From an uncultured Mycoplasmatota bacterium (GTDB taxonomy: Bacteria; Bacillota_I; Bacilli_A; RF39; UBA660), in assembly GCA_947165285.1 (NCBI GenBank), contig CAMUZS010000002.1:26302-90301 (forward strand): a stretch of 64,000 nucleotides of DNA, written 5' to 3'. The notes under the pieces are model-generated. The model was given only the letters and a program-made list of their open reading frames with translations. It was not told the origin of the DNA and searched no databases. Position 1 is the stretch's first letter; each line of letters opens with the position of its first letter. Below, in pieces: positions 515-39,635 of the stretch. The position numbers were made by a program, and so were the translations under genes.

Positions 515-559
515 AAAAAATCACATCCTATAATAAGATATGATTTAATAAATCTTTTG

Positions 560-2096: not shown

Positions 2097-2117
2097 AATA
2101 ATACCCCGTTTCTATTA

Positions 2118-3356: not shown

Positions 3357-3410
3357 AATTTATACTCCACCTACTCTAACATAAATAATTATACCATAAT
3401 CAATTATAAA

Positions 3411-4982
3411 TTACCATAAATCTTTAATATATTCCTTATACCATAATTGAAATAAATAAAGATTAAATAATATACATCCTTGTTCATAGTTTAGTTTTGA
3501 TTTTTTTAAATTATCAACTAATTTGTTAACTTTATTCACATTAAAAAGACCTTGTTCTTTTATAGCATTATCATTTAAATAATTCCTTATATCTTTATAA
3601 AAAAATGTATATATCCACTCTCTTAATGGAATTCCAAATCCCTTTTTTTGACTATTTAAATATTTACTTGGAACATAATCATATAATATTTGTTTTAATA
3701 TATGTTTTTTATCATTATTATAATATTTAAACTTATGCTTAATTTTAAAAGAAGATTCAATAAATTTATAATCACTAAAAGGTATTGCTATATTTAGATT
3801 AAAATACTTTAATGGATAATATCCCTTTAACATTAATCTATTAGAAAAAAATGATTTTATATCATTTAACATATAATTAATTTGATTATTAAAAGAAACA
3901 AATATTGTCTTTTTACATTTATATTTACTATTAACAGCATATTTTTCTATATTATGAATTTTATATTTTAAAATATTTCTAAGAGAAATAATATGTCTTA
4001 TTATAGATCCTTTAAATGTATAATAATCATATATTCTAGATCCACAAAATAATTGATCAGCACCATCTCCAACTAAAATTATATTTTTATTATCAACATT
4101 TTGACCTAAATAAATAATTGGTATAAGAGATGGATCTGCAAAAGGTTCACCATATATTTTAGGAATTAAATTAATTATTTCTTTAACCTTCTTTTCATCT
4201 AGATACAGTTCTTTATGATTTGTTTTTAAATATTTAGCTATTTTTTTTGACTCCTCAGCTTCATTTCTTTCTTTTTCATAAAAACCAACTGTATAAGTAT
4301 TAACTACCTTCTTTTCCTTTTTTAATAATGATGTAATTAAATTAGAATCTATTCCAGCACTTAAATAAACATTTACTATCTTATTATTTTTAGTTCTTAA
4401 TTTTATAGACTCTAATAAATCACTTTCTATTAATCTTTTAGCTTCTTCAATAGTTTTAATCTTATTTTTATTTTTTTTATACATTTTAACTAAATCATAA
4501 TACCTTTTTATTATTACTTTTTTATCATAATAAACATAATTACCACTACTAACTTTATATACATTTTTAAAAATAGTATATGGCTCATTAATATATGAAT
4601 TTTTTAAATAATTAGCTATCATCTTCTTATCAAAAACTAAATCATTTTTATATTTTTTTATAATTAATTTAAAATTATCCGTAACAACAAATTCATTATT
4701 AATCATAGCATAACATAATAACTTAGATCCTAATTTATCTCTTACAGCTTTAATAGTATTATTTTCTATAATTATTATTGCATATTCACCATTTAATTTT
4801 AAAAACAAATCATCATTATACTTTTTATATAATTTTAATACTTTTTTTTCAACACTTATACTTTCACTATTTAAATCATTTAGATTATATATATTTCCTA
4901 TAACATAACAATAATATTTATCATTAAATAAATTATCATTAATAAATATTTTATTATTTACTTTTGTTACTATAATATCCAT
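3411..4982 (-). CDS. Asparagine synthetase (AsnB)-family amidotransferase paralogue lacking the N-terminal Cys nucleophile
   Basis: AsnB synthetase-domain PP-loop YLSAGIDSNLITSLL plus an AsnB-like C-terminal region. The N-terminus is MDIIVTK..., with no Met-Cys start. The gene abuts a GT4 gene. Confidence 0.7.
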   Translation of the reverse strand: MDIIVTKVNNKIFINDNLFNDKYYCYVIGNIYNLNDLNSESISVEKKVLKLYKKYNDDLFLKLNGEYAIIIIENNTIKAVRDKLGSKLLCYAMINNEFVVTDNFKLIIKKYKNDLVFDKKMIANYLKNSYINEPYTIFKNVYKVSSGNYVYYDKKVIIKRYYDLVKMYKKNKNKIKTIEEAKRLIESDLLESIKLRTKNNKIVNVYLSAGIDSNLITSLLKKEKKVVNTYTVGFYEKERNEAEESKKIAKYLKTNHKELYLDEKKVKEIINLIPKIYGEPFADPSLIPIIYLGQNVDNKNIILVGDGADQLFCGSRIYDYYTFKGSIIRHIISLRNILKYKIHNIEKYAVNSKYKCKKTIFVSFNNQINYMLNDIKSFFSNRLMLKGYYPLKYFNLNIAIPFSDYKFIESSFKIKHKFKYYNNDKKHILKQILYDYVPSKYLNSQKKGFGIPLREWIYTFFYKDIRNYLNDNAIKEQGLFNVNKVNKLVDNLKKSKLNYEQGCILFNLYLFQLWYKEYIKDLW

Positions 4983-4984
4983 TT

Positions 4985-7144
4985 TTATACTTCCTTCTTA
5001 AAAATAAAATCTATCCATTCCTCACATATAGTTTTAGAATCTAATATTTTTTGAATCTTACATCCATTTTTACTTAGTTTTTCACTTAATTTTTTATCAT
5101 TTAACACTTTATCAATATTACTTGCTAAATCATCTTCATTACTAAATATTACATTATAATTATCTTTTAATAAATCATTATTAAAACTATTTATAGTAAT
5201 TGATGGAATACCAATTGAAATTGCTTCAAATAAGGCATTTGGCATACCTTCATATTCACTAGTTAAAACAAATAAACTACTTTTATAAATATCATTTTTT
5301 ATATTATTAGACTTTCCCATTAAGAATACTTTATTTTCCAAATTATTATTAATAATATATTTTTGTAATTTATTTTTTAAAGATCCATCACCATATATTT
5401 TCAAAATATAATCTTTATTTTTTATATTACTAAATGATTTAATTAATAATAAATGATTTTTTTGAGGTTCTAATCTACCAACACTAACAATTTCTTTTTT
5501 TCTATTGCCATTAAATCTATTACATATAAAATTATTATCAAGGGGATTATATATTACTATAGATCTTTGTCTTATTTTCTTATCAAAATAATTCTTAGCT
5601 TCATTACTTTGAAATATAAATCCCGTTACCTTATTAAACAGTAATTTTATTAATATCTTATCTCTTAATCTATTAAATTCATATTTTGGATTATTTCTTA
5701 TTGAAACAAAAATTTTCTTTTTCATAAATAAATTAGCAATAATAACTCTATAAGATACCTCTGGTAAAAAAGAAATAATAACATCTGGATTAATATTTTT
5801 TATTAATTTTTTTAATTTAAAAATTCTTTTTACATTTTTTAAAATACAATTTTTCTTAGAGTCATCTAATAAATACTCATTAATATTACTATCCAATAAA
5901 AAGCTATTACTTGTTTTTAATGTATTAATAATACTTACATTATTTCTTTTTATCATTTCATTAGATAAAGTAGTAATTACTCTTTGAGCACCACCATAAT
6001 TTTTTGAACCACTAACAAATAATATTTTATTTTTTAAAATATTCAAATAATAATTTTGAATAAATAAAACACTATCTTTTATATCAAAACCTTTTTCTTT
6101 TATAATATTTGATTGATTTTTTCTTTCACTAATTGGTTTTAATACTTCTTTTATCCATTTATTAACATCTAATTTAACTACTTTTACTAGTTTTTTATTT
6201 AAGATACCATCTTTTACATTATCAGATACTATTACTTTTAAAGATGCTGCTTGAGCTTCAATTAAAGTTAAAGGAAGTCCTTCATAAATTGATGGAATTA
6301 ATAAAATATCAATAGCTTGCATTAACTCATTAATATCATTTCTATCCTTAAGTAAAATAACATAATCATTTAGTTTATGTTCGTCAATATATTTTAGTAC
6401 TTTTGATTCTAATGATCCACTTCCAACAATTATTAATTTAAAGTTACTATCAAATCTTATTAATTCATTTAATAAATATAAAGAAAACATAGGATTTTTT
6501 TGATGTTCTAATCTTCCTATAAAACCCAATAATATTGCATTATCATTTATTCCTAAATCTTTCCTTGTTCTTTTTCTTAAAATGTTATTAAATGCATACT
6601 TATCAACATCTATTGAATTATTTAATACAACACATTTATTTGATTTAGTAACCTTCTTTTTAAATAAATACTCACATGATTTTTGTGAACATCCCATAAA
6701 ATAATCACTAACATATCTTATTTTATGTTGATATATAGCCTTTAATATAGATTTTAACTTCATACCATTAGATGTATTATGTGAATGAGTGATAGTTTTT
6801 ATATTATATTTATGAGCTATTTTAATTATTAATGAGGCAATACTTCTTACATGAATATGAATTATTTTATATTCATTATGATTTTTAAAAAAATTATTCC
6901 ACTCTTTTTTAAATGAAAAATGATTTGTAAATTTATAATAATTCATATAATATATTTTTCCACCAAGACTCTTTATTTCATCAGCATAATATATTTCATC
7001 TTTTCTATCTACAATAAAATCAAATTGTATTTTAGATCTATCAATATTTCTATATAAATTCATAATTAATGATTGAGACCCACCACAATTTAAACTACCA
7101 ATATATTGTAAAATTCTTACTGGATTATTTTTCATAAAATTCAC
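4985..7144 (-). CDS. Fused tandem glycosyltransferase (two GT4-family modules)
   Basis: Two repeats of the GT4 architecture: N-terminal GG..(S/A)Q motifs (SLNCGGSQSLIMNL; NYGGAQRVITTL) and C-terminal E-G-hPhsLhEA motifs (EGLPLTLIEAQAA; EGMPNALFEAISIG). Confidence 0.8.
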   Translation of the reverse strand: MNFMKNNPVRILQYIGSLNCGGSQSLIMNLYRNIDRSKIQFDFIVDRKDEIYYADEIKSLGGKIYYMNYYKFTNHFSFKKEWNNFFKNHNEYKIIHIHVRSIASLIIKIAHKYNIKTITHSHNTSNGMKLKSILKAIYQHKIRYVSDYFMGCSQKSCEYLFKKKVTKSNKCVVLNNSIDVDKYAFNNILRKRTRKDLGINDNAILLGFIGRLEHQKNPMFSLYLLNELIRFDSNFKLIIVGSGSLESKVLKYIDEHKLNDYVILLKDRNDINELMQAIDILLIPSIYEGLPLTLIEAQAASLKVIVSDNVKDGILNKKLVKVVKLDVNKWIKEVLKPISERKNQSNIIKEKGFDIKDSVLFIQNYYLNILKNKILFVSGSKNYGGAQRVITTLSNEMIKRNNVSIINTLKTSNSFLLDSNINEYLLDDSKKNCILKNVKRIFKLKKLIKNINPDVIISFLPEVSYRVIIANLFMKKKIFVSIRNNPKYEFNRLRDKILIKLLFNKVTGFIFQSNEAKNYFDKKIRQRSIVIYNPLDNNFICNRFNGNRKKEIVSVGRLEPQKNHLLLIKSFSNIKNKDYILKIYGDGSLKNKLQKYIINNNLENKVFLMGKSNNIKNDIYKSSLFVLTSEYEGMPNALFEAISIGIPSITINSFNNDLLKDNYNVIFSNEDDLASNIDKVLNDKKLSEKLSKNGCKIQKILDSKTICEEWIDFIFKKEV

Positions 7145-16326: not shown

Positions 16327-18363
16327 ATGATAATGAAAGCATTTGTACATAAATTAAAGAAATCAAATAAAGTATTTTTATCACTTTATTTAATATCCTT
16401 AATAACATATATTGTTTTTTATAGTATTTTTACAATAAATATACTTCATTTAAGCAATATTGAAACAGGAATTAGAATAGTATTACTAGTATTTTTTGGA
16501 CTATGGTTATTAATGTGGTTTATAACTGGATTAGTATTCTTATTTACTAAAAAATATAAAAAAATGATTATTTTAATAGTATTTACACTAATTTTTTCTG
16601 GAATATTTGGAGTAAGTAGTTATTATATAAATAAAATATATCAAACAGTAGATGGTATGAGTAAAGACAAAGTTGTATATACATCAAATTTAATAACATT
16701 AAAAGATTCTAATTTTGACAGTAATAGTAAAATAGGAATGATTAATGATTCTAATGACGTTGAAGGTTTTGTATTAGGAAATAAATTAATTAAGAATAAT
16801 TCATTAACTAATGAAATAAATAGATATGATGACTACTTAATAATGCTTAATGATTTATATACTAAAAAAATTGATGCTGCTGTTGTATCAGGAAATTATA
16901 TTATAAACTTTTCATCTGAAGAACAATTTGAAAATATAGAAAAAGAAACTAAAATAGTTTATACACTATCTGAAGAAATGAAAAATCAAGATAATGTATC
17001 GTATACAAACAAAAAATTAACTGAACCATTTACAGTACTTTTAATGGGTGTTGATTCAGAAAATGATGGACTTAATGCTAATCAAGCATTTAATGGAGAT
17101 ACATTAATGTTAATTACTTTTAATCCTAAAACATTAACAGCTAGTGTGTTCTCAATTCCAAGAGATACATTTGTTCCAATAGCATGTAGAAACGGAGCAT
17201 ATGCAAAAATAAATTCCGCAGCTGCATCTGGTACAAATTGTGTAATTAATACAATTAAAAATCTTACTGATATAGATATAGATTTTTATGTTAAGATTAA
17301 TTTCAAAGGTGTTGTAGATTTAGTTAATACAATAGGTGGAATTACAGTAGATGTAGAAAAGCCTTACTTTAGATATAATAATGGTATAGATTATCATGGA
17401 CAAGTTTGTGAACAAAATTCAAATCGTGATTTTGGTAACAGTACTGTTTGTATAGATCCAGGAGTACAAAGATTAAACGGTGAACAAGCTTTAGCTTATT
17501 CAAGAAATAGACATCAATATATTGGATCAGATTTAGATAGAGTAAAACATCAACAACAAGTAATAACAGCCTTAGCAAATGAAGTTAAAAATCTTTCATC
17601 ATTTGAACAATTTGAAGGAATTTTAAATGCAGTTGAAAAAAATATGGATACTAATATGAAAAATGAACAAATATTATCACTATATAATGTTGCTAAAAAA
17701 ATAGCATTAACTGCATTAAGTGGAAAAACAGATGAAATAGTTTCAATTAATCATACATATTTAGAAACTTATTCTCTTCCTGTATGGATAGGATATTCTA
17801 GAACATCCGCTTTAGGATATTATAAAGATTCATTAAATGATATAGTTAAAATGATGAAAATTAATCTTGAATTAGAAGAAGAAAAAATAACTAAAAATTA
17901 TGAAATTGATTATAATGAAAACTATGAATCAAAATATTATGGAGAAAAAATTAGATCAAATCAAGTACAAATACTAATGCCTAATTTAATAGGAAAATCT
18001 AAAGAAGAAGCAAGTAATTGGATTACTTCACAAGGAAAAACACCATCAATTAAATATGTTTCCCCTGGTGAAGCTCATTACAATTCTAGTGTAGGAAGTG
18101 GAGTTGTAGCTGATCAAGATATTCATATAGATTCATTAATAAATAATGTAGGAACTATAACAATCTATGTTAATGAAGGAAAAACAAATGTTATATCAGA
18201 AACAATAATAAATAATACAAACACTAATCAAGAAGATAAAAAAGAAGAAACTACTAGTAACGAAGTTCAAAAACAAGAAACTAAGACAGAAGAAAAAAAG
18301 GAAGAACAAAATAAAGAAACTGAAAATAAAGAATCTGAAAGCAAAGAAGATAATAAAGAATAA
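16327..18363 (+). CDS. LytR-CpsA-Psr (LCP) family glycopolymer-peptidoglycan ligase with N-terminal TM helices, a PASTA-like C-terminal module and acidic tail
   Basis: LCP core: LLMGVDSENDG...GDTLMLITFNP...SIPRDTFVPIA...AKINSAAASG. The later segment VQILMPNLIGKSKEEASNWITSQGKTPSIKYVSPGE...GVVADQD...GTITIYV fits the PASTA pattern. The tail is E/K-rich low complexity. Confidence 0.75.
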   Translation: MIMKAFVHKLKKSNKVFLSLYLISLITYIVFYSIFTINILHLSNIETGIRIVLLVFFGLWLLMWFITGLVFLFTKKYKKMIILIVFTLIFSGIFGVSSYYINKIYQTVDGMSKDKVVYTSNLITLKDSNFDSNSKIGMINDSNDVEGFVLGNKLIKNNSLTNEINRYDDYLIMLNDLYTKKIDAAVVSGNYIINFSSEEQFENIEKETKIVYTLSEEMKNQDNVSYTNKKLTEPFTVLLMGVDSENDGLNANQAFNGDTLMLITFNPKTLTASVFSIPRDTFVPIACRNGAYAKINSAAASGTNCVINTIKNLTDIDIDFYVKINFKGVVDLVNTIGGITVDVEKPYFRYNNGIDYHGQVCEQNSNRDFGNSTVCIDPGVQRLNGEQALAYSRNRHQYIGSDLDRVKHQQQVITALANEVKNLSSFEQFEGILNAVEKNMDTNMKNEQILSLYNVAKKIALTALSGKTDEIVSINHTYLETYSLPVWIGYSRTSALGYYKDSLNDIVKMMKINLELEEEKITKNYEIDYNENYESKYYGEKIRSNQVQILMPNLIGKSKEEASNWITSQGKTPSIKYVSPGEAHYNSSVGSGVVADQDIHIDSLINNVGTITIYVNEGKTNVISETIINNTNTNQEDKKEETTSNEVQKQETKTEEKKEEQNKETENKESESKEDNKE

Positions 18364-21819: not shown

Positions 21820-22971
21820 TTACTTTTTATTTTTTTTCTTCTTCCTATTTTTAGATTTTTCATTCATTATCTCATGTTGTTTTTTAACTAATTCTTTTTG
21901 CTCTAATTCTTCCTTTATAATTGTACTTTTATGTTTAAATAAAATGTCTGTTTTCATTACAATTAATAGTAAAAATATCATTAATATTACATATATTATT
22001 ATAGCTTGTTTTTGATCACCTATTGCAAAAAATACAGAAACAGCACTAAATAAAATAGTAATAAAATATATTATTAAAATAGTATTTTTTTGAGAAAATT
22101 TCATTTTTAAAAATTGATGATGTAAATGTTCTTTATCAGGATTTGTAAATGGATTTTGATGTTTTAATAATCTTCGAATAATCGCAGATGCTGTATCAAA
22201 TATAGGTATGGCCAAAATTGAAATAGGTACAACAATTGATGTTAATGTAGTAGCTTTGTAACCTAATAAACCAATTACACTAATAATAAATCCTAAAAAA
22301 TAACTACCTGTGTCTCCCAAAAATATTGATGCAGGTGGAAAGTTATGTACTAAAAATCCTAACGTTGCTCCAGCCATAATTAATGATAATATAACATCAA
22401 GGCCACCTCTTTGATTTAATATAAAAGCAATAATTGCAATAGTAATAAAATATATTGAAGATATACCTGAAGCCAATCCATCAAGGCCATCAATTAAATT
22501 TATTACATTCATTACAGCAACAATAAATAATATAGTTATTATCTGACTCCAAGGAGCACTAAAGTATAAATTTAAACCAAATATAGTAATCTCATTTAAC
22601 ATTAAATTACCATATATACATACAGTAGCTGCAGCAATAACTTGAACTAAAAACTTATATTTTGCCTTTACTGGATTAATATCATCAATAATACCACATA
22701 AAACTATTAAAAAACTTCCGATAAGCACTGAAAGCATCATCGTAGACTCTCTTGCATAAAGCATATAACCTAACATAAATGATAAAAATATTGCAAGGCC
22801 ACCTAATCTAGCAATTGGCTTTTTATGTATTTTTCTTTCATTAGGCATATCAATGGCGTTAATATGAATAGCCACTTTTCTTATAATTGGTGTAATAATG
22901 ATACTAGTTAAAAACGTAACCAATAATACAACATATATATTATGACCATTTACTGTTATATCCATAAACAT
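21820..22971 (-). CDS. Polyprenyl-phosphate N-acetylhexosamine-1-phosphate transferase (TagO/WecA/MraY family) with Lys-rich C-terminal tail
   Basis: Multi-TM protein with PNERKIHKKPIARLGGLAIFLSF and other MraY/WecA-like loops. The C-terminus ends ...NEKSKNRKKKKNKK. Confidence 0.8.
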   Translation of the reverse strand: MFMDITVNGHNIYVVLLVTFLTSIIITPIIRKVAIHINAIDMPNERKIHKKPIARLGGLAIFLSFMLGYMLYARESTMMLSVLIGSFLIVLCGIIDDINPVKAKYKFLVQVIAAATVCIYGNLMLNEITIFGLNLYFSAPWSQIITILFIVAVMNVINLIDGLDGLASGISSIYFITIAIIAFILNQRGGLDVILSLIMAGATLGFLVHNFPPASIFLGDTGSYFLGFIISVIGLLGYKATTLTSIVVPISILAIPIFDTASAIIRRLLKHQNPFTNPDKEHLHHQFLKMKFSQKNTILIIYFITILFSAVSVFFAIGDQKQAIIIYVILMIFLLLIVMKTDILFKHKSTIIKEELEQKELVKKQHEIMNEKSKNRKKKKNKK

Positions 22972-23003: not shown

Positions 23004-24725
23004 TTATTTTTTTAAACTATTTATTTTTTTATAAAATTTATTATTCTTAAGTAAATTATTATGATCTCCATCTCCTATTATTTTACCTTTTTTTAAAATA
23101 ATAATTCTATCACTATTTTTTATACATTCTATATCATGAGTAATCATAATTATTGTATACTTTCCTTTTAATTTATCAATTAATTCATTAATTGATTTAA
23201 TAGCATCTCTATCTAAATTATTAGTTATCTCATCAAAAAGTAATATTTTGGCATTTGTTAATAATACTCTTGCAATCGCTAATCGCTGTTTTTCACCACC
23301 ACTAAAATTAGTTGCATCATCATTTAAGATAGAATCATACTTTTTTTCTAAACTATTTATTTTTTTATCTAAACCAACAATTTTACATACTCTTTTAATA
23401 TTTCCAAAATTGTTATCAATTAATTCTAAATTCTCTTTTATTGATAAATTAAATAAAAATGGTTGTTGAGTAACTAATGCTATATTATTTCTTATACTTT
23501 CTTCATCAAGTTCATTAATATCATAATTATCAAGAAAAATTTTTCCACTATTTAAAGAATACATTTTAGTTATTAAAGAAAATAATGTAGATTTACCTGA
23601 TCCATTATCACCTATTATTGTATTAAAAGAATTCTTATTTATTATTAAATTAAAATTACTTATTATTTCATTATTATTATCATATGAAAAACTTACATTC
23701 TTAAACTCAATATTACCTTCTAGTTTCCCAATTTTTTTCTTACCAAAAGATTCCCTATCATAATCTAATATAGAAATAATTCTATTAAATGATAAATCAA
23801 ATTGGCCAAAATTATTAACTAATGTAGATAATCTTGTAGTAAAATTAAACACTTTTCCTCTATTCATTAAAATAAGTATAAAAGTCGAAGTTGTAAGTAA
23901 TTCATTTTTAATTAACAACATAGATAATAATATCATACCACCTAAAAATATAGATTCTAAAAAGTTAGTTATTTTAGAATAGTAATCTAAATAATAATTA
24001 CTTTTATATTCAAGTTCACTAATATTTTCAAAAGAATCATTAGTCTTTTCTTTAAAATTATCTTTTAAATTAAGTGTTTTTATATCCTTAACACCTCTAT
24101 ATATTTGACTTAACAAATTAGAATTATCATCTAATTTTTTTAAATTAATATTTTTATAATACAAACTTTTCTTTATTCCATAATATCTTATTAAAAAAGT
24201 AATAACACAACATATAAAAAAATATAGACCAATAATAGGATTTAAAAAAAGTATAACTATTAATGTACCAAAACTAGAAAAAATAGATAAAAAACTATCT
24301 TTTATTACCGTAAAATAATTAGATATTCTAGATGTATCAGATTGTATCTTATTTAAAAAATTACCCTGACCATAAATATGAAATACATTAATACTTAAAT
24401 TAAGTGTTATGTTACAAACATATTTTCGTATATTAAGCACCATTTTTTTTCTAAGCTTTAAAAATATCTTTGTAGATAATAAATTACATATTACATTTAC
24501 TACCTTTACTAATGCAGATATTATAAGAAATACAATTACTAAATTAAATTCTTTATTTAGAATATTGTTTATCATAATACCACTTATAGTTGGTAAAAAT
24601 ACAGATAAAATAGTAGCAATAAAAGACAATATTAAAAAAATTATAATTTCTTTTTTACAATTATTTAAAAAAAACTTAAATCTTTTAAAATTACTAATAT
24701 ATTTCTTCATGCTAATACCTTCCAA
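23004..24725 (-). CDS. ABC exporter, fused permease-ATPase (MsbA-type half transporter)
   Basis: Six N-terminal TM helices; Walker A IIGDNGSGKSTL; signature FSGGEKQRLAIARVLL; Walker B ILLFDEITNNLD. Confidence 0.85.
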   Translation of the reverse strand: MEGISMKKYISNFKRFKFFLNNCKKEIIIFLILSFIATILSVFLPTISGIMINNILNKEFNLVIVFLIISALVKVVNVICNLLSTKIFLKLRKKMVLNIRKYVCNITLNLSINVFHIYGQGNFLNKIQSDTSRISNYFTVIKDSFLSIFSSFGTLIVILFLNPIIGLYFFICCVITFLIRYYGIKKSLYYKNINLKKLDDNSNLLSQIYRGVKDIKTLNLKDNFKEKTNDSFENISELEYKSNYYLDYYSKITNFLESIFLGGMILLSMLLIKNELLTTSTFILILMNRGKVFNFTTRLSTLVNNFGQFDLSFNRIISILDYDRESFGKKKIGKLEGNIEFKNVSFSYDNNNEIISNFNLIINKNSFNTIIGDNGSGKSTLFSLITKMYSLNSGKIFLDNYDINELDEESIRNNIALVTQQPFLFNLSIKENLELIDNNFGNIKRVCKIVGLDKKINSLEKKYDSILNDDATNFSGGEKQRLAIARVLLTNAKILLFDEITNNLDRDAIKSINELIDKLKGKYTIIMITHDIECIKNSDRIIILKKGKIIGDGDHNNLLKNNKFYKKINSLKK

Positions 24726-24751: not shown

Positions 24752-26353
24752 TTATTTAAAAGATTTTATATTATGAAAATACCATAGTTGAAAAATATAA
24801 TAATTCCATAATACAATTGCTCTTGAATAAACAGGATATTTTTCATAATAATTAATTAGTTTTATTAATTCATCATATTTAAATATTTTTTGTTCATCTA
24901 TATAATCTTTTTTAGTTATCTTTTTTATATCATCTAATAAAAAATCTTTCATCCATTTTTTTATTGGTATACCAAAACCATTTTTTTTATAATTATCAAA
25001 ATATTTTTTATCTATATTATTATATAAAACTTTACTAAAAATATATTTATTATCTCTATTATTATCTATTAAGTCATTATTATATTCCATAAATTTATAT
25101 AATAAATCTACATCATAAAATGGAGTATAATAATTCATTTTTAGATTTTTTAATATATGAATATTTTTGTTTTTAACTTTTTCAGAACCAATATGACCAT
25201 ACAACTCTAAATTAGATACTTCATATGAATATTTTTTATTTAACTTTATTACTTTTCCTTTATAACCCACTAAGTTATCAGAATAAGCAAAACGTCTTAT
25301 TATTGGAACTTGTAAACGTTCACTATAATTTTTAGGAATTCTTATTTTATGAGTATATTTATATAATAATTCTTTATAATATTTAATATTATTAAAACTA
25401 TTATTTATCTTAAATAAATCAAATAATCCATCTACACCTTCACCTGCTAAATAAAAATCATTTTTTTCTTTAATATTTTCCATCATGTAAATACTTGGAA
25501 TAATTGATGGATCTGCAAAAGGTTCATCATAAATTAATGGAATCTTATTAATTATTTTTTTTACATCTTTTGTTTTTAATATAATACTATGATGATTAGT
25601 TCCAATATAATTTGCTATTATTTTTGCATTTTCACTTTCATCTATTTCATCTTCGAAACCTAAAGTATAAGTATTAATTTTATTTTTATAATACTTTGAT
25701 GCAAGTAAACAAAGTAATGTTGAATCTTTACCACTACTTAAAAATATTCCTACCTTAGAATTTTTACTTCCATATTTACAAATACAATTAAATAATAAAT
25801 CTTCTAAATTATTAATATTTTGTTCTTCACTTAACTTATTCTTCTTAATATCTTTAGCTTCTTCACAAATATCAAAATATTTAATTATTTTTATATCATC
25901 ATCATATTTTAATATACTACCTTTATTTAATTTATAAGTATCTAAATAAATTGTATCACTTTCATATATATATGAATATCCTAGATAATTTGCAATAGAT
26001 TGTTTATTAATTTTTAGATTTAAACTACAATTATTTTTAATTAATGATAATTTATTAGAAAAAAACAAAATACCATCTTTATGATAATAATATAATGGTA
26101 AATTACCTAATTTATCTTTAATAATAAATAATTTATTATTATCAACAATAAAAACATTATAATTACCATCAAGATAATTAACAAAATCAAGTGATTTTTC
26201 TTTATATAATTTCTCAATATACTTAATATCACTTAACTTAGTATTATTTATGATATAACCATCAATAAAAATAAAAAGATTATCTAATTTTTGTACAACA
26301 TTATCTATTTTAATTGAAATCTTATTATTTATTATACTTCCTTCAATTTTCAT
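24752..26353 (-). CDS. Second AsnB-family amidotransferase paralogue lacking the N-terminal Cys
   Basis: PP-loop IFLSSGKDSTLLCLLAS and the AsnB-like synthetase domain. The N-terminus is MKIEGSII... with no Cys2. It overlaps the upstream GT4 gene by 11 nt. Confidence 0.7.
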   Translation of the reverse strand: MKIEGSIINNKISIKIDNVVQKLDNLFIFIDGYIINNTKLSDIKYIEKLYKEKSLDFVNYLDGNYNVFIVDNNKLFIIKDKLGNLPLYYYHKDGILFFSNKLSLIKNNCSLNLKINKQSIANYLGYSYIYESDTIYLDTYKLNKGSILKYDDDIKIIKYFDICEEAKDIKKNKLSEEQNINNLEDLLFNCICKYGSKNSKVGIFLSSGKDSTLLCLLASKYYKNKINTYTLGFEDEIDESENAKIIANYIGTNHHSIILKTKDVKKIINKIPLIYDEPFADPSIIPSIYMMENIKEKNDFYLAGEGVDGLFDLFKINNSFNNIKYYKELLYKYTHKIRIPKNYSERLQVPIIRRFAYSDNLVGYKGKVIKLNKKYSYEVSNLELYGHIGSEKVKNKNIHILKNLKMNYYTPFYDVDLLYKFMEYNNDLIDNNRDNKYIFSKVLYNNIDKKYFDNYKKNGFGIPIKKWMKDFLLDDIKKITKKDYIDEQKIFKYDELIKLINYYEKYPVYSRAIVLWNYYIFQLWYFHNIKSFK

Positions 26354-27536
26354 CTAGTACCCTTTCCCATTTTTTTAATATTTTTTCTTTACTAAAATCA
26401 CTAACTCTATTTATTGATTTCTTTTTATAATTATCATATAACTTTTTATTATTTAATAATTCTAATATTGCATCTTTTAATATTATTTCTTCCTTAGTTA
26501 ATTTATAATTAGCTTTATATTTTTTATAATCACATATTGGAACTAATACTCCATATTCTTCAAAAGAAATATTATTAACAAAATTATCATTATCTTTTCT
26601 TATAGATAAAATTTCTTTAGTTCCACCATAACTATCACTAGCAATAATTGGAAGAGAACAAGCAAGAGATTCTAACAATACATTTGGCATTCCTTCATAA
26701 AAAGAATTTAAAACAAATAATTTAGAATTATACATATACTTATATATATTTTCTTTAAAATCAAAAATAAAAACTTTATCATTTAAATTATAATCATTAA
26801 CTAATTTTTTATAATACTCTTTTAATGGTCCCCTTCCAATTAATACTAATTTTATATTGTTATCATATTTTACAATTTCATTAAAAACCCTAATTAAATG
26901 CCATTGACCTTTTTGTTCATTATATCTTCCAACAGATAATATAACATCATTTTTAAAAATATTCATTTCTTCCCTAGATAGTTTTTCTTTTTTTAATTTA
27001 TTAATATTTTCAATATCTAAATAGTTTTCTATAACGACACTATTATTTTTATCCAATTTATATCTTTTAATTTGATCTTCTTCAACACTTTTTGAAACAT
27101 TAATAACTTTATCAACTCTCTTAATATATTTTTTATATAGTTTTATAAATATTTTAAAAATTATAGATTTTGGTAAAAAATGTTTATTAATTCCCATGTA
27201 ATTTCTAGTTGAAAAATATATCTTATCACCAGCTTTGCTTAAATAATTAAATACGCAATATTTCATTATAAAACTAATAGAAATATCAATATTTAATTCT
27301 TTTTTTATTCTTTTTAATTTAGAAATTCCTTTAAACATTACTCTACTTATTCTAAGTTCTTCTATTTCAATAATATTAACATCTGGTATATAGTCGGCAT
27401 TATCTAACGTTCTAACAACTAAAGTAATGTTATATTTATTTTTTAAACTATTGCATAAATTATATATTACTTTTTCAGCTCCACCTGATGTCATATTTCC
27501 AATTAAAAACAATATATTTTTCTTCATGAGAATCAC
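26343..27536 (-). CDS. Glycosyltransferase family 4
   Basis: IGNMTSGGAEKVIYNL N-terminal motif and EGMPNVLLESLACSLPIIAS C-terminal motif. Confidence 0.8.
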   Translation of the reverse strand: MILMKKNILFLIGNMTSGGAEKVIYNLCNSLKNKYNITLVVRTLDNADYIPDVNIIEIEELRISRVMFKGISKLKRIKKELNIDISISFIMKYCVFNYLSKAGDKIYFSTRNYMGINKHFLPKSIIFKIFIKLYKKYIKRVDKVINVSKSVEEDQIKRYKLDKNNSVVIENYLDIENINKLKKEKLSREEMNIFKNDVILSVGRYNEQKGQWHLIRVFNEIVKYDNNIKLVLIGRGPLKEYYKKLVNDYNLNDKVFIFDFKENIYKYMYNSKLFVLNSFYEGMPNVLLESLACSLPIIASDSYGGTKEILSIRKDNDNFVNNISFEEYGVLVPICDYKKYKANYKLTKEEIILKDAILELLNNKKLYDNYKKKSINRVSDFSKEKILKKWERVLDEN

Positions 27537-27550
27537 CTTATCTAATTATA

Positions 27551-28516
27551 CTATTTCTTTTCAATTACTTTATATAATGTTGAACAATTACAACTCTTTG
27601 CATTACAAATAAATTTCTTTGTAATCTTACAAATATTATCATTTAAAATATTACCTAATTTTGTATTTATATTTTCATTACATCTATAAACATCTCCAAT
27701 ATTACTAATTGCTATAGAATTTATTCCAGCATCACAAATAAAACCAGAAGGATTAAAATTATGGGTCTTATTTATAGACATTGAAAATATATTTGTTTTA
27801 GAAAAATAATGTGCTTTACCATCTTTAGTTACTACCATAATTCTATTACTAGGATTTTTATTTAACTCATTTTTTACTTTATCACTTATACTTTTTTTAT
27901 AATTTCTTATAGGTACAAATTCAACTTTAAAGTTTTTAGAATACTTGTTTTTAAAATCCAAATATAAATCATAATCAATATCTTCAATTAATGGTATATT
28001 AATAGTTGTTTTAATATTTTGTTTATTATTTAATATTTTAACTTTATTTATAAACTCTTTCTCATTAGTATAAGCTTTATAATAACTGCAACTAAAATTT
28101 ATTTCTCTATTTTTTAATTTTTTAAACATTTTAACAAATTGTTTTAATATCTTTTTATCCGCAGACATATTAGTTGTAATATTAAATTTAATCAATCCAT
28201 CAAATTTACAATTAATTAATTTATTCATAATATTAAATATATCTTTTAAAATTGTTACTTCACCACCAATTAAGTAAAAATGTAATATATCATATTTTGA
28301 ATTTAAATTATTTTCTATATATAAAATTATCTTATCTAATATATTATTTCTTAAATCTAATGATTCATTTTTTGAATCTTTTATATGCTGTTCTTTATTA
28401 CCTTGAATACAAAAATCACAATTATAATTACATACTCTAGTAACATTCCATCTTATAACATACGTACCCTTTTTTATAATTTTATTTTCTATTCTAACTA
28501 TATCACTATTATTCAT
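27551..28516 (-). CDS. Radical SAM enzyme with C-terminal Cys-rich (SPASM/twitch-like) region, embedded between GT4 genes
   Basis: CNYNCDFCIQG is a CxxxCxxC motif about 30 aa from the N-terminus. The C-terminal third carries seven Cys (FICDAG...YRCNEN...NICKI...FICNAKSCNCS). Its start codon shares a nucleotide with the stop of the upstream GT4 gene. Confidence 0.65.
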   Translation of the reverse strand: MNNSDIVRIENKIIKKGTYVIRWNVTRVCNYNCDFCIQGNKEQHIKDSKNESLDLRNNILDKIILYIENNLNSKYDILHFYLIGGEVTILKDIFNIMNKLINCKFDGLIKFNITTNMSADKKILKQFVKMFKKLKNREINFSCSYYKAYTNEKEFINKVKILNNKQNIKTTINIPLIEDIDYDLYLDFKNKYSKNFKVEFVPIRNYKKSISDKVKNELNKNPSNRIMVVTKDGKAHYFSKTNIFSMSINKTHNFNPSGFICDAGINSIAISNIGDVYRCNENINTKLGNILNDNICKITKKFICNAKSCNCSTLYKVIEKK

Positions 28517-29673
28517 TATATAACCTCATTTATTAGATTTAACCATTTCTTTATTATTACATTTTTACTATAATCTTTTTTTCTAATTGATGATTGTTTA
28601 ATATAATAATTTCTTTTATTGTTATCATTTAATATCATTAATATAGCCTTTGCTAATAATTGTTCTTTTAATGTAATATAATCTTTATTATGTTCATTAA
28701 TAAATGATGGAACTAAAATACCATATTTCTTCTCTTCAATATCATCTACAAACGTATTTATATTTTCATCATCAATTATTTCTATTGAACCACCATATGA
28801 AGACGTTGATATTATTGGTAAATCACAATTTATGGCCTCAATTAAAACATTAGGAAAACCTTCATAATCAGATGCTAAAACCATACACTTAGCATATTTA
28901 AAAAACTTAAAAGGATTTTTATAATATGACATTAAAAATACATTATTCTTTAAATTATATTTATCTATTAAATCATTTAAGTAATCTTTTTGATTTCCCC
29001 TACCAAATATTAATAGTTTTGCATCACTTTTTTCTTTAACTACAATACTCATTGATTTAATAATATGTTCATGTCCTTTATGTTCAACAAGTCTTGCCAT
29101 ATCAATTATCATATTATTGCTGATATATTTTTTTTCGTTTTCTTCTATTTTTTCTTTAATACATTTATTTATTAATGCATCATCACAAAAGTTTTCAATG
29201 ACAACTGTTTTCTTCTTTTTAGAATGATATTTTTTTATTTGATCATCATAAACACTTTTTGAACAACATATAACTTTATCACAAAAAAGTAATGATATCT
29301 TATGATATATATATAAAATAAATTTTTCTTTTTTAGCAGATAAATGATTTCGAACAGATATAAAAACCTTATCCTTACACTTAGACAATATATTATAATA
29401 ATTATATAATGTAGTATAACTTATTGTAACATCTATATTATTTTCTTTTTTTATCTTTTTTAACTTTTTTATAGCCTTTAATCTTTTATGTTTTGAATTA
29501 AATTCCAATATTTCAATAGTTTTTACATTACAATCATAATCGAATGAACACTTATCAGCACATACTAAAATAACATTATGATATTTCATAAGTTCATTTG
29601 CTAAATTAATAATAGATCTTTCAGCACCACCATTATTTAGATTTCCAATTAATAACATAATGTTCTTTTTCAT
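28516..29673 (-). CDS. Glycosyltransferase family 4
   Basis: LIGNLNNGGAERSIINLANEL and EGFPNVLIEAINCDLPIISTS motifs. Confidence 0.8.
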   Translation of the reverse strand: MKKNIMLLIGNLNNGGAERSIINLANELMKYHNVILVCADKCSFDYDCNVKTIEILEFNSKHKRLKAIKKLKKIKKENNIDVTISYTTLYNYYNILSKCKDKVFISVRNHLSAKKEKFILYIYHKISLLFCDKVICCSKSVYDDQIKKYHSKKKKTVVIENFCDDALINKCIKEKIEENEKKYISNNMIIDMARLVEHKGHEHIIKSMSIVVKEKSDAKLLIFGRGNQKDYLNDLIDKYNLKNNVFLMSYYKNPFKFFKYAKCMVLASDYEGFPNVLIEAINCDLPIISTSSYGGSIEIIDDENINTFVDDIEEKKYGILVPSFINEHNKDYITLKEQLLAKAILMILNDNNKRNYYIKQSSIRKKDYSKNVIIKKWLNLINEVI

Positions 29674-29730
29674 AATGTTCTCCCTCTTATATTATACATG
29701 ATAAGATATTTATTTACAAAGATTATATGT

Positions 29731-29763
29731 ATTAAAAAAGTTGATAACTAAAAAGTTATCAAC
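29731..29763 (-). terminator. Rho-independent terminator after the antiporter gene
   Basis: Perfect 10-bp inverted repeat gttgataact/agttatcaac (29740-29763), followed by a U-run on the minus strand, immediately 3' of the stop at 29768. Confidence 0.65.
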
Positions 29764-35603: not shown

Positions 35604-37424
35604 TTATGCTTCTTTAAAATAAACATCATACCATACTAAGAAAGTATATATTGTCCATACCTTTTTATAACAATCTTTTTTACCACTTTTATGAAGTTCT
35701 AATAATTTCAATATTTTCTTTTGATTAAACAAATATGCTGCTTCTTCACTTTCAAATTTTACCTTTATTGTATTATATAAGTCATCTTCTTTTATCCATT
35801 CTCTTAAAGGAACTGGAAAGCCTAATTTTTTCTTTTTATATGATTCATTAGGAATAACGCTTTTAGCCGCTAATCTTAATGCTGGTTTAGTTGTTTCACT
35901 ACTTATTTTTGCACTTAATGGCAAATTTTTAGCAACATCATAAACTTTATCATCTAAAAATGGAGTTCTTGCTTCTAAAGAAAACATCATTGTATTTCTA
36001 TCAACTGCATGTAAAAAATCCTTGACTAACCAATAATAATAATCCACTATTTGTCTTTTAGTTGTATTATCCTTTCCTTTATTATTTTCATATAATTTTC
36101 TTACTATACTAGTTGGTTTAATCTGATTATTAAAATTTACTATATTAATGGCATCTTTATCTCTAAATACCCTTCCTAATCCAATATTTTGATCTTCTAA
36201 CTTTTGGCCACGACGATATATAAAATTAAATCCTCTAATATCAGGAAATATAGATGCAATACTTGAAGCAATATGTCTTAAGAAAAAAGGTATTTTCATA
36301 TACCAACTTTGTGATATATCTTCTAAATATGTTTGATATCCTCCAAAAAATTCATCAGCACCTTCTCCAGACATTACAACCTTTACATCACGTGATGCAA
36401 TTTCTGCTACAAAATAAAGAGCAATCGCAGATGGATCTGCTAATGGTTCATCCATATAATACATAATTCTTTTAAAATTACTAATATATTCATCTTTAGT
36501 TATCTTTTTAGAAGTATTAGATATTCCTAATTTATCAGTTAAATCCTTAGCATAAGAAATCTCATCATATTTTAAATTATCATATCCAACAGTATAGGTT
36601 TTATCTGGTCTTGCAAGTGAAACAAGATAAGATGAATCTATACCACTAGATAAAAATGATCCTACCTCTACATCACTAATCTTATGATATTCAACACTAT
36701 TTTCCATAGCATTTCTTATATCTTTAACAATAGTTTCCATATCTTGTTCTTTTGGATTAATATCAAGTTCAAAGTACTTTTGAATATCTATATTATCATC
36801 TTTATATAATAATGTATGTCCAGGTTCTAAACGATATACACCTTTAAAGAAAGTTTCTTCAGTTGGAGTTGAATTAAAACAAAGATAAGATGCTAAAATT
36901 TCCTTATTTAATTCTTTATTAAATTTAGGATGATCTAAAAAGCATTTAATTTCTGATGCAAACATAAATGTATCATCAAACTTAGCATAATAAAGTGGTT
37001 TAATTCCCCATTTATCTCTTGCCATAAATAATTCTTTATTTTTTATATCATATATAGCAAATGCAAACATACCTCGCAAATGATTTACTACATCTTTACC
37101 CCACTCTTTATAACCATAAATTATAGTTTCTGTATCAGATTTATTTTGAAACTTATATCCTTTATTTTTTAATTCATCTTTTAATTCTAAAAAATTATAT
37201 ATTTCACCATTAAAAACAATAACTAAAGACTTATCATCACTAAACATTGGTTGTGCACCAGTATTTAAATCTATTATTGCAAGACGCCTATGAGCTAAAG
37301 CAATATTATCGTCAATATAATATCCTTCTCCATCTGGTCCACGATGAGCTATCCTATTAGCCATTTTTATTATAGTTTCCTTTTTATCCTTTTCTTTATT
37401 TATAAATCCTGTTATTCCACACAT
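35604..37424 (-). CDS. asnB: Asparagine synthetase B (glutamine-hydrolysing), intact Cys2 nucleophile
   Basis: Begins MCGITGFI..., the class-II glutamine amidotransferase start. PP-loop SFLSSGIDSSYLVSLA. Confidence 0.9.
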   Translation of the reverse strand: MCGITGFINKEKDKKETIIKMANRIAHRGPDGEGYYIDDNIALAHRRLAIIDLNTGAQPMFSDDKSLVIVFNGEIYNFLELKDELKNKGYKFQNKSDTETIIYGYKEWGKDVVNHLRGMFAFAIYDIKNKELFMARDKWGIKPLYYAKFDDTFMFASEIKCFLDHPKFNKELNKEILASYLCFNSTPTEETFFKGVYRLEPGHTLLYKDDNIDIQKYFELDINPKEQDMETIVKDIRNAMENSVEYHKISDVEVGSFLSSGIDSSYLVSLARPDKTYTVGYDNLKYDEISYAKDLTDKLGISNTSKKITKDEYISNFKRIMYYMDEPLADPSAIALYFVAEIASRDVKVVMSGEGADEFFGGYQTYLEDISQSWYMKIPFFLRHIASSIASIFPDIRGFNFIYRRGQKLEDQNIGLGRVFRDKDAINIVNFNNQIKPTSIVRKLYENNKGKDNTTKRQIVDYYYWLVKDFLHAVDRNTMMFSLEARTPFLDDKVYDVAKNLPLSAKISSETTKPALRLAAKSVIPNESYKKKKLGFPVPLREWIKEDDLYNTIKVKFESEEAAYLFNQKKILKLLELHKSGKKDCYKKVWTIYTFLVWYDVYFKEA

Positions 37425-37442
37425 TTATATCACATCCTAAAT

Positions 37443-39635
37443 TTATTTTAAAACTTTTTTATAATAATTATATTGCATAATAAGTTTTGACATATTGATA
37501 CGATTAGCAACTACTTTATTCATCTTACTTACATAATCTTCTGGTATATCTTTTCCATCTAATGCAATAAATTTTCCAGTCGCAGCATTATACCTACCCA
37601 AATCACTTATCCAACTACGATCTGTAAAAAACGCAAGTCCATTTTCAGTAGAAAATATATCTTTTCCAATAATTAATCTAGAATCATATTTTACGTTAAA
37701 CATATTTAGTACAGTTGGAAGTACATCAAGTTGTGTTGTAATTTTATCAATAACTTTATGTTCAGAATTATTATTCCATATAATTAATGAAGAATGATTA
37801 ACTTCAAATCTTTCATCTCTTTTATAATCAGATAATTCATTAATTGTATTAATATTCATAGAATATGGATAATGATCTGGTACAATAACTATTACCGTAT
37901 CATCTAATTTATTTTCTTCAGTTAATTTATTAATTATTTGTTCAACTGCCTTATCAAGTTCAATATTAGCTGCAACATAAGCTTTAGCTTCCTCTGACAT
38001 TTTTAAATCAGATACTTTATCTTTATTTCTTCTAGACATATTATTTCCAGAAAATGACCATGGCATATGACCAGATACACTTACATAATAAGTCATAAAT
38101 TTATCTTCTTTAATAAAATCATCTAATGTAACATTAACCATATCATAATCAGATTGTGGCCATAAATTACAATTCATTTTCTTTTCAAGACCATTTCCTC
38201 TTGCTAAAAATTTATCAAATCCCATACTCTTTAAATATTTATTACGATCTTGAAATCCTCCATAATTTGGATGATATGCATTAACTTCATAACCTAAATT
38301 ATTAAAAACATTACCAAGTCCATATGGAAAGTAATTTGTACCACCTCTAAAATATGTACTTAGCATTCCAAGATTAGCAAATAAACCAGTCAAATCTTGA
38401 AATTCACCACCTAATGTACTTAAATTTACTGGTGTATAAAAATTAGTAAATTCAAATCCTTCATGAGATAATTTATATAAAGTTGGTGTATATTTTTCAG
38501 ATATTGCAATATTATTTAAACTTTCACCCATTATAAATATTAAATTCTTTCCTTCATATATTCCTGTATATTCATTTTTATAAGTTGGATTTTGTTTGCT
38601 AAAGTATTCATGCATACTTTTAATAGTAGAATTACTTTCTCCTGCAATTAAACCATCAAAATCTATATCTTCCTTATTTGGTTCAAAAGTAATTTCCTCT
38701 TCGTTATTATTTTCTATAACTTCAGGTATTTCATCTAATACTACTTTTTCTTCAATTGGATTAATAATTCTTTTAATATCTAAGTATGTAGATACATTAA
38801 TTCCCATTTTTTCTACATTCATTGCATTACTATCAATATTATAAAATAACTCTTTAATTTCATTATTACTATTTATAGAAATAATAAACAATACAATGCT
38901 TACTGCTAAAAATAATAAGTTTAATGTAAATTGTTTTATATTATTTTTTTTATAATTAATTTTTTTATTAAATAAAATTATAACTATAAAAGGTATAATA
39001 AATAATAATAAGAATGAAAAGTTTTTTAATACTTCAGAAATAGTAGTATCCATAAATGCAACAGCTTGATCACTTATACCTAATAAATGAAATGAAAAGA
39101 AAGTATTAAATATTCTTTTAAAAACAAACAATCCAAAATAACAACCACTTAATAAGAAAACTATAATAAATGATACTATCTTATTAAATTTATCACTAAA
39201 CAATCTTGTTATTATATTTAATATAACAGACATAATTAAAGCAAATAATCCAAAGTATATTATTTTAGTTGGAAACATAGAATTAAAATCAAATATAGTA
39301 ATTTGATATATTAATTCTATAAATAATATACTTATAAAATATACTAATCCTAAATTAATTTTTCTTTTTTCTTTTTCTTCTTTAGTTGGTTTTATATTAT
39401 TTATTTCAACTTTTAAATCTTTATTTTCAATAATAGCTTCTTCATTTTTTACTTCAGTTAATATAGGTTCACTTTTAACTGTAGTTCTTTTTTTAACAGT
39501 TGTACTTTTTTTAACTGTACTAATCTTTTTCTTTGGTGTAACATTTTTCTTTTTAGGTGTTGTTTTAGTAGTATTTTTTTTGACAGTATTTTTCTTAGTA
39601 GTAGTACTTGTTTTTTTCTTAGGCATAAAAATCAC
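37443..39635 (-). CDS. LtaS-type sulfatase-family membrane protein (lipoteichoic acid synthase-like / phosphoglycerol transferase) with an about 100-aa Lys/Thr-rich N-terminal tail
   Basis: Five TM helices, then an extracellular alkaline-phosphatase-superfamily domain (FIMGESLNN..., VIVPDHYPYS). The N-terminus is MIFMPKKKTSTTTKKNTVKKNTTKTTPKKKNVTPKKK... Confidence 0.7.
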   Translation of the reverse strand: MIFMPKKKTSTTTKKNTVKKNTTKTTPKKKNVTPKKKISTVKKSTTVKKRTTVKSEPILTEVKNEEAIIENKDLKVEINNIKPTKEEKEKRKINLGLVYFISILFIELIYQITIFDFNSMFPTKIIYFGLFALIMSVILNIITRLFSDKFNKIVSFIIVFLLSGCYFGLFVFKRIFNTFFSFHLLGISDQAVAFMDTTISEVLKNFSFLLLFIIPFIVIILFNKKINYKKNNIKQFTLNLLFLAVSIVLFIISINSNNEIKELFYNIDSNAMNVEKMGINVSTYLDIKRIINPIEEKVVLDEIPEVIENNNEEEITFEPNKEDIDFDGLIAGESNSTIKSMHEYFSKQNPTYKNEYTGIYEGKNLIFIMGESLNNIAISEKYTPTLYKLSHEGFEFTNFYTPVNLSTLGGEFQDLTGLFANLGMLSTYFRGGTNYFPYGLGNVFNNLGYEVNAYHPNYGGFQDRNKYLKSMGFDKFLARGNGLEKKMNCNLWPQSDYDMVNVTLDDFIKEDKFMTYYVSVSGHMPWSFSGNNMSRRNKDKVSDLKMSEEAKAYVAANIELDKAVEQIINKLTEENKLDDTVIVIVPDHYPYSMNINTINELSDYKRDERFEVNHSSLIIWNNNSEHKVIDKITTQLDVLPTVLNMFNVKYDSRLIIGKDIFSTENGLAFFTDRSWISDLGRYNAATGKFIALDGKDIPEDYVSKMNKVVANRINMSKLIMQYNYYKKVLK

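Follow-up and report, generated by a model that had tools for sequence, protein, structure and literature searches.

Radical S-adenosylmethionine (SAM) enzymes that act on sugars and carry a twitch domain are already familiar from antibiotic pathways. The carbohydrate epimerases HygY, NeoN and AviX12 resemble the protein considered here in length, at about 300 residues, in carrying a single auxiliary-cluster domain at the C-terminus and in having a further conserved Cys; no partner enzyme is needed for their action on sugars, and their genes likewise lie among glycosyltransferase genes. The resemblance comes from the literature and not from alignment, no sequence relationship being detectable, and the settings differ, since these enzymes serve actinomycete secondary metabolism whereas the loci of the family that we describe belong to gut anaerobes and encode primary glycans of the cell envelope. 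Here we analyze one member, encoded in a 64,000-nt stretch of DNA from an uncultured Mycoplasmatota bacterium (positions 26,302 to 90,301 of contig CAMUZS010000002.1, hereafter the window), where a radical SAM gene stands between two genes for family-4 glycosyltransferases (GT4). In gut and rumen anaerobes, surface glycans influence how susceptible the cell is to phages, how the immune system recognises it and how it colonises, and many of the loci for their synthesis carry uncharacterised radical SAM genes. A case in point is the 36-kb plasmid of Brachyspira hyodysenteriae, with six such genes among group-1 glycosyltransferase and rfb genes, a block whose presence correlates with colonisation and virulence (PMC4267127). 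What it has in common with the window is a surface-glycan locus, in an AT-rich gut anaerobe, where radical SAM genes are interspersed with transferases of the GT4 type; tblastn revealed no relationship between the plasmid genes and the window family.

Other described enzymes are comparably remote in sequence. BtrN, SpeY, BlsE and DesII, the solved radical SAM enzymes that act on sugars, are 11-16% identical to the window protein, and their Cys pattern is unlike its CX17C...CX4CXC. The Bacillus subtilis peptide epimerase EpeE (YydG; PDB 8ai1) gives a TM-score of only 0.44 at 15-16% identity; its substrate peptide is encoded next to it, and no equivalent open reading frame (ORF) was found at loci of the window family. 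STM4011 (NF038073) has a Cys-rich C-terminal segment in common with the window protein, which does not reach the membership score; it has no known function, and our search of the literature on it returned nothing functional. As to the pathway, the TagO/WecA-dependent Gram-positive wall glycopolymer systems and the Campylobacter Pgl system comprise the same set of functions as the window; its GT4s resemble PglJ, PglH and TuaC and its exporter PglK and MsbA, with all equivalog scores far below threshold. Neither system is known to include a radical SAM enzyme, and our literature search turned up no paper that connects such an enzyme with the assembly of Gram-positive wall glycopolymers.

Against this background, the family of the window protein stands out as a distinct one, twitch-type and uncharacterised, which is firmly associated with loci for cell-envelope glycans but whose chemistry is unproven. 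Its identity as a radical SAM protein, proposed in the first-pass annotation of this DNA, is upheld by a match to Pfam Radical_SAM (PF04055) at 40.4 bits against a gathering threshold of 29.5 (E 4.6e-10), and by CNYNCDFC (C29-x3-C33-x2-C36), the predicted motif of the SAM-binding cluster, which is kept in all of the 108 distinct family sequences over which we measured Cys conservation. A GGE motif, also associated with SAM binding, occupies residues 84-86. The protein has 11 Cys in total, six of which lie in its last third (C261, C279, C296, C304, C309 and C311); the annotation had counted seven there, yet the motifs that it listed (FICDAG, YRCNEN, NICKI and FICNAKSCNCS), all of which we located in the translation, hold six. 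Eight Cys are conserved: C29, C33, C36 and C261 at 100%, C279 and C309 at 99%, C304 at 98% and C311 at 97%, as is G274 at 100%. By comparison, C103 is present in 55% of the homologues, C143 in 11% and C296, the Cys of NICKI, in 2%, so that the last is not conserved. The five auxiliary Cys are therefore each retained at 97-100%.

The hairpin of SPASM and twitch domains has the consensus CX9-15GX4C. The segment C261-x12-G274-x4-C279 conforms to it, and strands 267-270 and 275-277 of an AlphaFold model fit the hairpin region between C261 and C279. SPASM domains bind two auxiliary clusters and require no fewer than seven Cys, among them a Cx2-4Cx5Cx2-3C block (PMC5682303); twitch domains are truncated versions with a single auxiliary cluster (PMC13012085). 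The Cx2-4Cx5Cx2-3C block was not found in the window protein, whose conserved C-terminal Cys number only five, and the SPASM profiles PF13186 and TIGR04085 gave no match at E<=0.01. As far as sequence can tell, this supports a twitch-like C-terminal domain and not a full SPASM domain, most likely holding one auxiliary [4Fe-4S] cluster. The annotation had left the choice between the two open; the conserved C-terminal Cys, the CX12GX4C hairpin and the structural neighbours agree with a SPASM/twitch assignment, from which the full SPASM form has to be dropped. The AlphaFold model itself (pLDDT 90.5, pTM 0.89) shows a partial TIM barrel followed by a C-terminal beta-hairpin. The structural comparison that the annotation had suggested returned SPASM/twitch enzymes as best neighbours (SkfB, ChlB, SuiB, EpeE, PqqE, CteB and TigE, which are peptide maturases), and the only Foldseek matches were TigE and EpeE, the latter an epimerase with one auxiliary cluster. 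Another of the annotation's suggestions, C-methylation, is unlikely because no cobalamin-binding domain was detected: there is no match to PF02310, and the 28 residues ahead of CxxxCxxC leave no room for one.

The family is compact. A search of 5.8 billion proteins yielded 45 homologues at E<1e-30, the nearest of them 44-47% identical and nearly all without a name; this number and the confident model place the protein well outside what chance would produce. When the family profile was run against 1.84 billion representatives, about 45 full-length members scored above 300 bits, beyond which scores fell sharply to about 130 bits and passed into a heterogeneous tail (539 proteins at E<1e-10); clustered at 50% identity, the family numbers about 45. 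Neither the protein nor its relatives fall under any curated NCBIfam model: the protein, the core family and the distant relatives all match STM4011 best, with 40-70 bits where 200 are required, and the window protein, which scores 53.1 bits over residues 237-319 only, is not a member; the anSME model TIGR03942 was not among its NCBIfam matches. No PDB sequence matched the family profile at E<=0.1. In a single-sequence search of the PDB, matches to the homing endonuclease I-MsoI fell in a Lys/Asn-rich segment and were set aside as artefacts of composition.

Genome and metagenome scans, together with exact look-ups, brought together 55 loci with a family member, 42 of them non-redundant at 90% identity. 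All come from metagenome-assembled genomes (MAGs) or metagenomes of gut or rumen, and they span at least five phyla, with representatives in Bacilli, Clostridia, Lachnospiraceae, Coriobacteriia, Bacteroidales and Planctomycetaceae. Among the 34 loci with enough flanking sequence, a GT4 or GT2 gene lies within four genes of the radical SAM gene in 23 and immediately beside it in 16. Recurring neighbours include Wzy_C polymerases/ligases, ATP-binding cassette (ABC) and ABC-2 transporters, Bac_transf priming transferases, NAD-dependent epimerases/decarboxylases, MBOAT and SGNH acyltransfer pairs, a GHMP sugar kinase with a nucleotidyltransferase, and AsnB. The survey of GT4, AsnB and ABC genes around homologues, which the annotation had called for, hence places the family within glycan loci in several phyla. 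Among Bacilli MAGs a module of the radical SAM gene, both GT4s, AsnB and the ABC exporter is kept together at 42-55% identity, and two loci have two radical SAM paralogues each. Across the loci as a whole, glycosyltransferases apart, no partner is constant.

The most specific recurring neighbour is an apparently exported beta-helix protein (pectate-lyase or Pel9A-like), whose gene lies immediately upstream in seven loci of different phyla (L007, L010, L016, L055, L011, L027 and L025) and immediately downstream in L005; in L055 it is fused to Acyl_transf_3. The Pel9A-like proteins were identified by Pfam, an iterative hidden Markov model (HMM) search from pectate-lyase-like clusters having missed them. 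A UDP-glucose dehydrogenase gene directly adjoins the radical SAM gene in L025, L037, L038 and L050.

In the window itself, the span 27551-28516, for which the annotation had proposed a radical SAM gene, is filled exactly by an ORF, on the minus strand; the plus-strand frame of the same span contains stops throughout and no ORF. The ATG shares one base with the stop codon of the upstream GT4 gene (TAATG, 28514-28518, minus strand), as had been noted, and is preceded by a GAGG Shine-Dalgarno sequence. Both flanking genes are indeed GT4 genes, each with Glycos_transf_1 and Glyco_transf_4 matches. The distance of 14 nt to the next of them holds if GTG 27536, its start in the ORF list, is used; more likely, to judge from the sequence, the gene starts at ATG 27527, at a gap of 23 nt, because GTG 27536 sits within an AAGGTGA Shine-Dalgarno sequence 5 nt before that ATG. 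Translational coupling of the radical SAM gene is borne out either way, in what is a GT4/AsnB/ABC operon of six genes, ordered on the minus strand as GT4, radical SAM, GT4, AsnB, ABC exporter and WecA/TagO-like transferase (Table 1). Its GC content is 19.6%, against 24.9% in the rest of the window. At its upstream boundary the terminator-like hairpin follows a Na/Ca exchanger gene and the promoter-like site precedes the first GT4 gene; such promoter-like sites are no commoner here than in shuffled sequence, so that the promoter is assigned by position only.

Table 1. Features of the radical SAM locus and of the associated glycan genes in the window.
Feature	Position	Strand	Details
Radical SAM gene	27551..28516	minus	321 aa; ATG 28516-28514, TAG stop 27553-27551
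Radical SAM [4Fe-4S] site, C29-N-Y-N-C33-D-F-C36	28409..28432	minus	Codons; Cys 100% conserved in 108 homologues
Twitch-like auxiliary-cluster region, residues 261-311	27584..27736	minus	Predicted; C261-x12-G274-x4-C279 hairpin, then C304-x4-C309-x-C311
Upstream GT4	28516..29673	minus	385 aa; orthologues 50-53% identical adjoin the radical SAM gene in L001-L004
Downstream GT4	26343..27536	minus	Best NCBIfam match PglJ-like, below threshold; overlaps AsnB start by 11 nt
AsnB-type glutamine amidotransferase	24752..26353	minus	533 aa; orthologue of the second of two tandem AsnB in L001 and L004
Half-size ABC exporter	23004..24725	minus	573 aa; MsbA best match, also PglK-like; candidate lipid-linked-glycan flippase/exporter
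WecA/TagO-like polyprenyl-phosphate N-acetylhexosamine-1-phosphate transferase	21820..22971	minus	Glycos_transf_4 132.7 bits; 11 transmembrane-like segments; predicted priming enzyme
Operon boundary	29691..29763	minus	Terminator-like hairpin 29763-29740; promoter-like TTGTAA-17-TATAAT 29719-29691
LytR-CpsA-Psr (LCP) ligase with C-terminal PASTA domain	16327..18363	plus	LytR_cpsA_psr 144.8 bits; three N-terminal transmembrane-like segments
Second glycan cluster	173-7144	minus	GC 18.7%
Apparent split-off part of the same system	3411..7144	minus	Double-GT4 fusion 4985-7144 and AsnB paralogue 3411-4982

In light of these neighbours, we consider it reasonably probable that the radical SAM protein is a cytoplasmic sugar-tailoring enzyme in a WecA/TagO-primed pathway that assembles an undecaprenyl-linked wall glycopolymer. 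The protein is soluble, with neither a transmembrane segment nor an amphipathic anchor, which places it in the cytoplasm and its action before export. Primer, glycosyltransferases, exporter and ligase are all encoded in the window (Glycos_transf_4, two GT4s, ABC_membrane with ABC_tran, and LytR_cpsA_psr); from this genomic context we infer both that the substrate is a sugar and the order of the steps. The WecA/TagO-like enzyme would prime the lipid carrier, undecaprenyl phosphate, and the two GT4s, together with the double GT4 of the split-off cluster, would extend the glycan, while the target of the AsnB-type amidotransferases would be a carboxylate, probably that of a uronic acid, which they would amidate. 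The radical SAM enzyme would act between the GT4 steps or in parallel with them, abstracting hydrogen from an unactivated C-H of a sugar that is either part of a nucleotide-sugar donor or already lipid-linked. Finally, the MsbA/PglK-like ABC exporter would move the product outward and the LCP ligase would join it to peptidoglycan. This ligase, encoded 3.5 kb from the operon on the opposite strand, is the candidate for the last step, and its link to the pathway is presumed; to our knowledge, the combination of LCP and PASTA domains has not been described. Together with LtaS-like, LysM, SH3 and dockerin proteins encoded elsewhere in the window, it indicates that the host is a walled Firmicute.

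What the enzyme does to its sugar is a more delicate matter. By analogy with HygY and NeoN, the reaction could be a redox-neutral epimerisation, a possibility that we put forward tentatively. In this scheme the auxiliary cluster would be held by four of the conserved C-terminal Cys, leaving the fifth free to hand a hydrogen atom back on the opposite face of the sugar. Radical SAM epimerases with a Cys as hydrogen-atom donor together with a twitch cluster have been described (PMC13012085, PMC5682303), and the title of the HygY paper ascribes such a donor to HygY. Epimerisation is favored, first, because the fifth conserved Cys could donate hydrogen as in EpeE and, going by that title, HygY, and second, because no follow-up enzyme recurs: among the top neighbour families of the loci there is no recurrent aminotransferase or reductase that would act on a keto-sugar. 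An epimerase can work by itself, in keeping with loci that offer no constant partner besides glycosyltransferases.

Alternatively, the enzyme could tailor the same glycan by another chemistry, namely oxidation of a sugar hydroxyl in the manner of BtrN or SpeY, a two-electron reaction with the twitch cluster as electron acceptor, or decarboxylation or transformation of a hexuronate in the manner of BlsE. We regard this as less likely, yet as a serious alternative, several observations being consistent with it. Neighbours connected with uronic acids recur, in that the UDP-glucose dehydrogenase genes adjoin the radical SAM gene in the four loci named above, pectate-lyase-like beta-helix genes lie immediately upstream in seven, and AsnB amidotransferases are encoded in the window as well as in the Bacilli group. 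Moreover, the four essentially invariant Cys (261, 279, 309 and 311) would suffice for a fully ligated electron-transfer cluster. However, an aminotransferase or reductase to consume the keto-sugar does not recur in the loci, neither a UDP-sugar dehydrogenase nor a beta-helix gene was found in the window, and genes for uronic acids are common in glycan loci generally, so that their association with this family is possibly unspecific.

Several points weigh against sugar tailoring, or against epimerisation as its chemistry. The family is uncharacterised, and no named relative emerged from the homologue, NCBIfam and cluster searches; its structural neighbours are mostly peptide-modifying enzymes, to which it is no more distant than to the sugar enzymes. 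The auxiliary cluster is itself deduced from the Cys pattern. No recognised glycosyltransferase lies within four genes in 11 of the 34 loci, some of which are high-GC contigs where our crude ORF calling is unreliable. The choice of an epimerase over a dehydrogenase or decarboxylase stems solely from counting Cys and from the absence of partners, and one homologue, P0039, lacks C304. In the fusion protein P0077, a complete family member is joined to a 260-residue N-terminal domain with an LDAGDG motif whose match to GT_PLOD stays below threshold (22 bits, cutoff 27); the domain looks GT-A-like, and we take the fusion as a lead toward a glycan role, not as proof. Lastly, a distant relative in Photobacterium carries the same C-terminal Cys domain in a cluster of the peptide-export type, so that this domain alone does not imply a sugar substrate.

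The latter relative, which shares only the C-terminal Cys segment with the window protein, is encoded on the Photobacterium damselae plasmid NZ_CP150465 (L030, 156074-164343), in a cluster with a toxin-activating acyltransferase, SelO, a GT2, a 95-residue hypothetical protein, HlyD and an ABC exporter with a C39 peptidase domain. This may be a system for a glycosylated or otherwise modified secreted peptide.

Should the window enzyme be a maturase of a ribosomally synthesised and post-translationally modified peptide (RiPP), a small precursor, possibly glycosylated by the GT4s and cyclised or amidated by AsnB, would be modified by it and then exported by the ABC transporter. The seven top structural neighbours, all peptide maturases, are consistent with such a role, as are the good scores of the exporter against bacteriocin-exporter models, weak matches of AsnB to lasso cyclase models, and the company that the Photobacterium relative keeps (a small hypothetical gene, HlyD and a C39-peptidase ABC transporter). 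Nevertheless, we hold it to be very improbable. The annotation had seen no precursor gene in the flanks, and this stands up: when intergenic ORFs of 12-110 aa within 5 kb of the radical SAM gene were compared between loci, matches occurred only among near-identical contigs, divergent loci having no small ORF in common; the gaps on either side of the gene are tiny, mostly -53 to +138 nt. The CxxxCxxC motif begins at residue 29, which leaves no space for an N-terminal RiPP recognition element (RRE), and Pfam detected no RRE/PqqD-like domain; RREs are not universal among radical SAM maturases of RiPPs, EpeE having none. The exporter, for its part, has MsbA as best match and begins with its transmembrane domain, bacteriocin exporters aligning only from their position ~146 on, and no C39 peptidase domain was found on it. 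The loci also hold sugar-nucleotide enzymes, ABC-2 permeases, Wzy-like polymerases and primers of the WecA or Bac_transf type, an outfit for making lipid-linked polysaccharides and not peptides.

A protein could also be the substrate, if the enzyme acted in the manner of anSME on a pathway enzyme or on a glycoprotein acceptor. Members of the STM4011 family, the best NCBIfam match, are encoded in a cassette together with a sulfatase-like hydrolase, although the match reaches only 53 bits (cutoff 200) and covers just the last 80 residues; furthermore, the GT4s resemble, below threshold, the protein-glycosylation transferases PglJ and PglH. This seems to us most improbable, for no sulfatase family gene recurs in the loci, no other single protein family is constant across them, and the LtaS-like gene of the window lies 9 kb away and is unlinked in homologous loci. 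The least probable substrate is the lipid part, either the polyprenyl carrier or a glycolipid anchor: the radical SAM gene is always associated with lipid-linked glycan assembly, but the protein lacks both a membrane segment and an amphipathic anchor, the fold search places it closer to enzymes with soluble substrates, and no lipid-biosynthesis genes recur in the loci.

If, as we favor, the enzyme tailors a sugar of the wall glycopolymer, and if it does so on the lipid-linked intermediate, radical SAM sugar chemistry would extend from antibiotics to cell-wall assembly, and unusual sugars would be predicted in the walls of the carriers; ordinary tailoring of a nucleotide sugar would make for a useful annotation and no surprise. 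It is conceivable, and we say so with due reserve, that this would be the first radical SAM enzyme to edit sugars in the assembly of a primary cell-envelope glycopolymer, by O2-independent radical epimerisation or oxidation. Strict gut anaerobes would thereby gain sugar stereochemistries or oxidation states beyond those provided by the usual NAD-dependent nucleotide-sugar enzymes, and horizontal transfer between phyla would spread the radical SAM gene as a means of surface-antigen diversification. With a compact family, a confident model, eight conserved Cys, a six-gene operon and clear candidate substrates, the proposal is directly testable in vitro.

The second glycan cluster of the window appears to be the other half of an ancestral locus that was split in this genome, because the orthologue of its AsnB adjoins the radical SAM gene in related MAGs: the product of 3411-4982 is the orthologue of the first of the tandem AsnB proteins in L001 and L004. 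The double-GT4 fusion beside it is 719 aa long and comprises two GT4 units. The cluster further encodes a 412-residue C-terminally anchored protein, a 372-residue N-terminally anchored protein, and bPH_3 and LysM proteins. A Wzy-like identity of the 412- and 372-residue proteins was rejected, each having a single membrane anchor and no Pfam family.

Elsewhere in the window (35604-39635, minus strand), a third AsnB-family gene lies directly downstream of that for the 730-residue LtaS-like, sulfatase-family membrane protein; its 606-residue product has full GATase and Asn_synthase domains and is probably a true asparagine synthetase. An unrelated radical SAM gene with Radical_SAM_C (PF16199) at 10632-11552 (plus strand) stands outside the glycan system.

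A homologue bears the name "organic radical activating enzyme" in one source; a role as glycyl-radical activase was discarded, since no glycyl-radical enzyme is encoded in any locus. The distant relatives (80-130 bits) were likewise given up as a guide to function, being heterogeneous. One of them, P0097 (112 bits; L029, 279-3802), directly follows a family-B DNA polymerase on a virus-like contig of 4.3 kb, which suggests a viral or mobile-element setting for part of the wider superfamily. P0092 (992 aa) consists of two radical SAM halves, both distant relatives of the family, on either side of an unknown domain of about 320 residues; the latter was tried as the C-terminal half of a GT4, for which it is in the right register, and was not used as evidence given an hhalign probability of 16% and no Pfam match, so that this fusion, like P0077, is no more than a lead. 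In a rumen metagenome (L060, 1341-8098), five tandem, distantly related radical SAM paralogues that score 42-96 bits with the family HMM are followed by a UDP-glucose-dehydrogenase-like gene, an array that recalls the six radical SAM genes of the Brachyspira hyodysenteriae plasmid.

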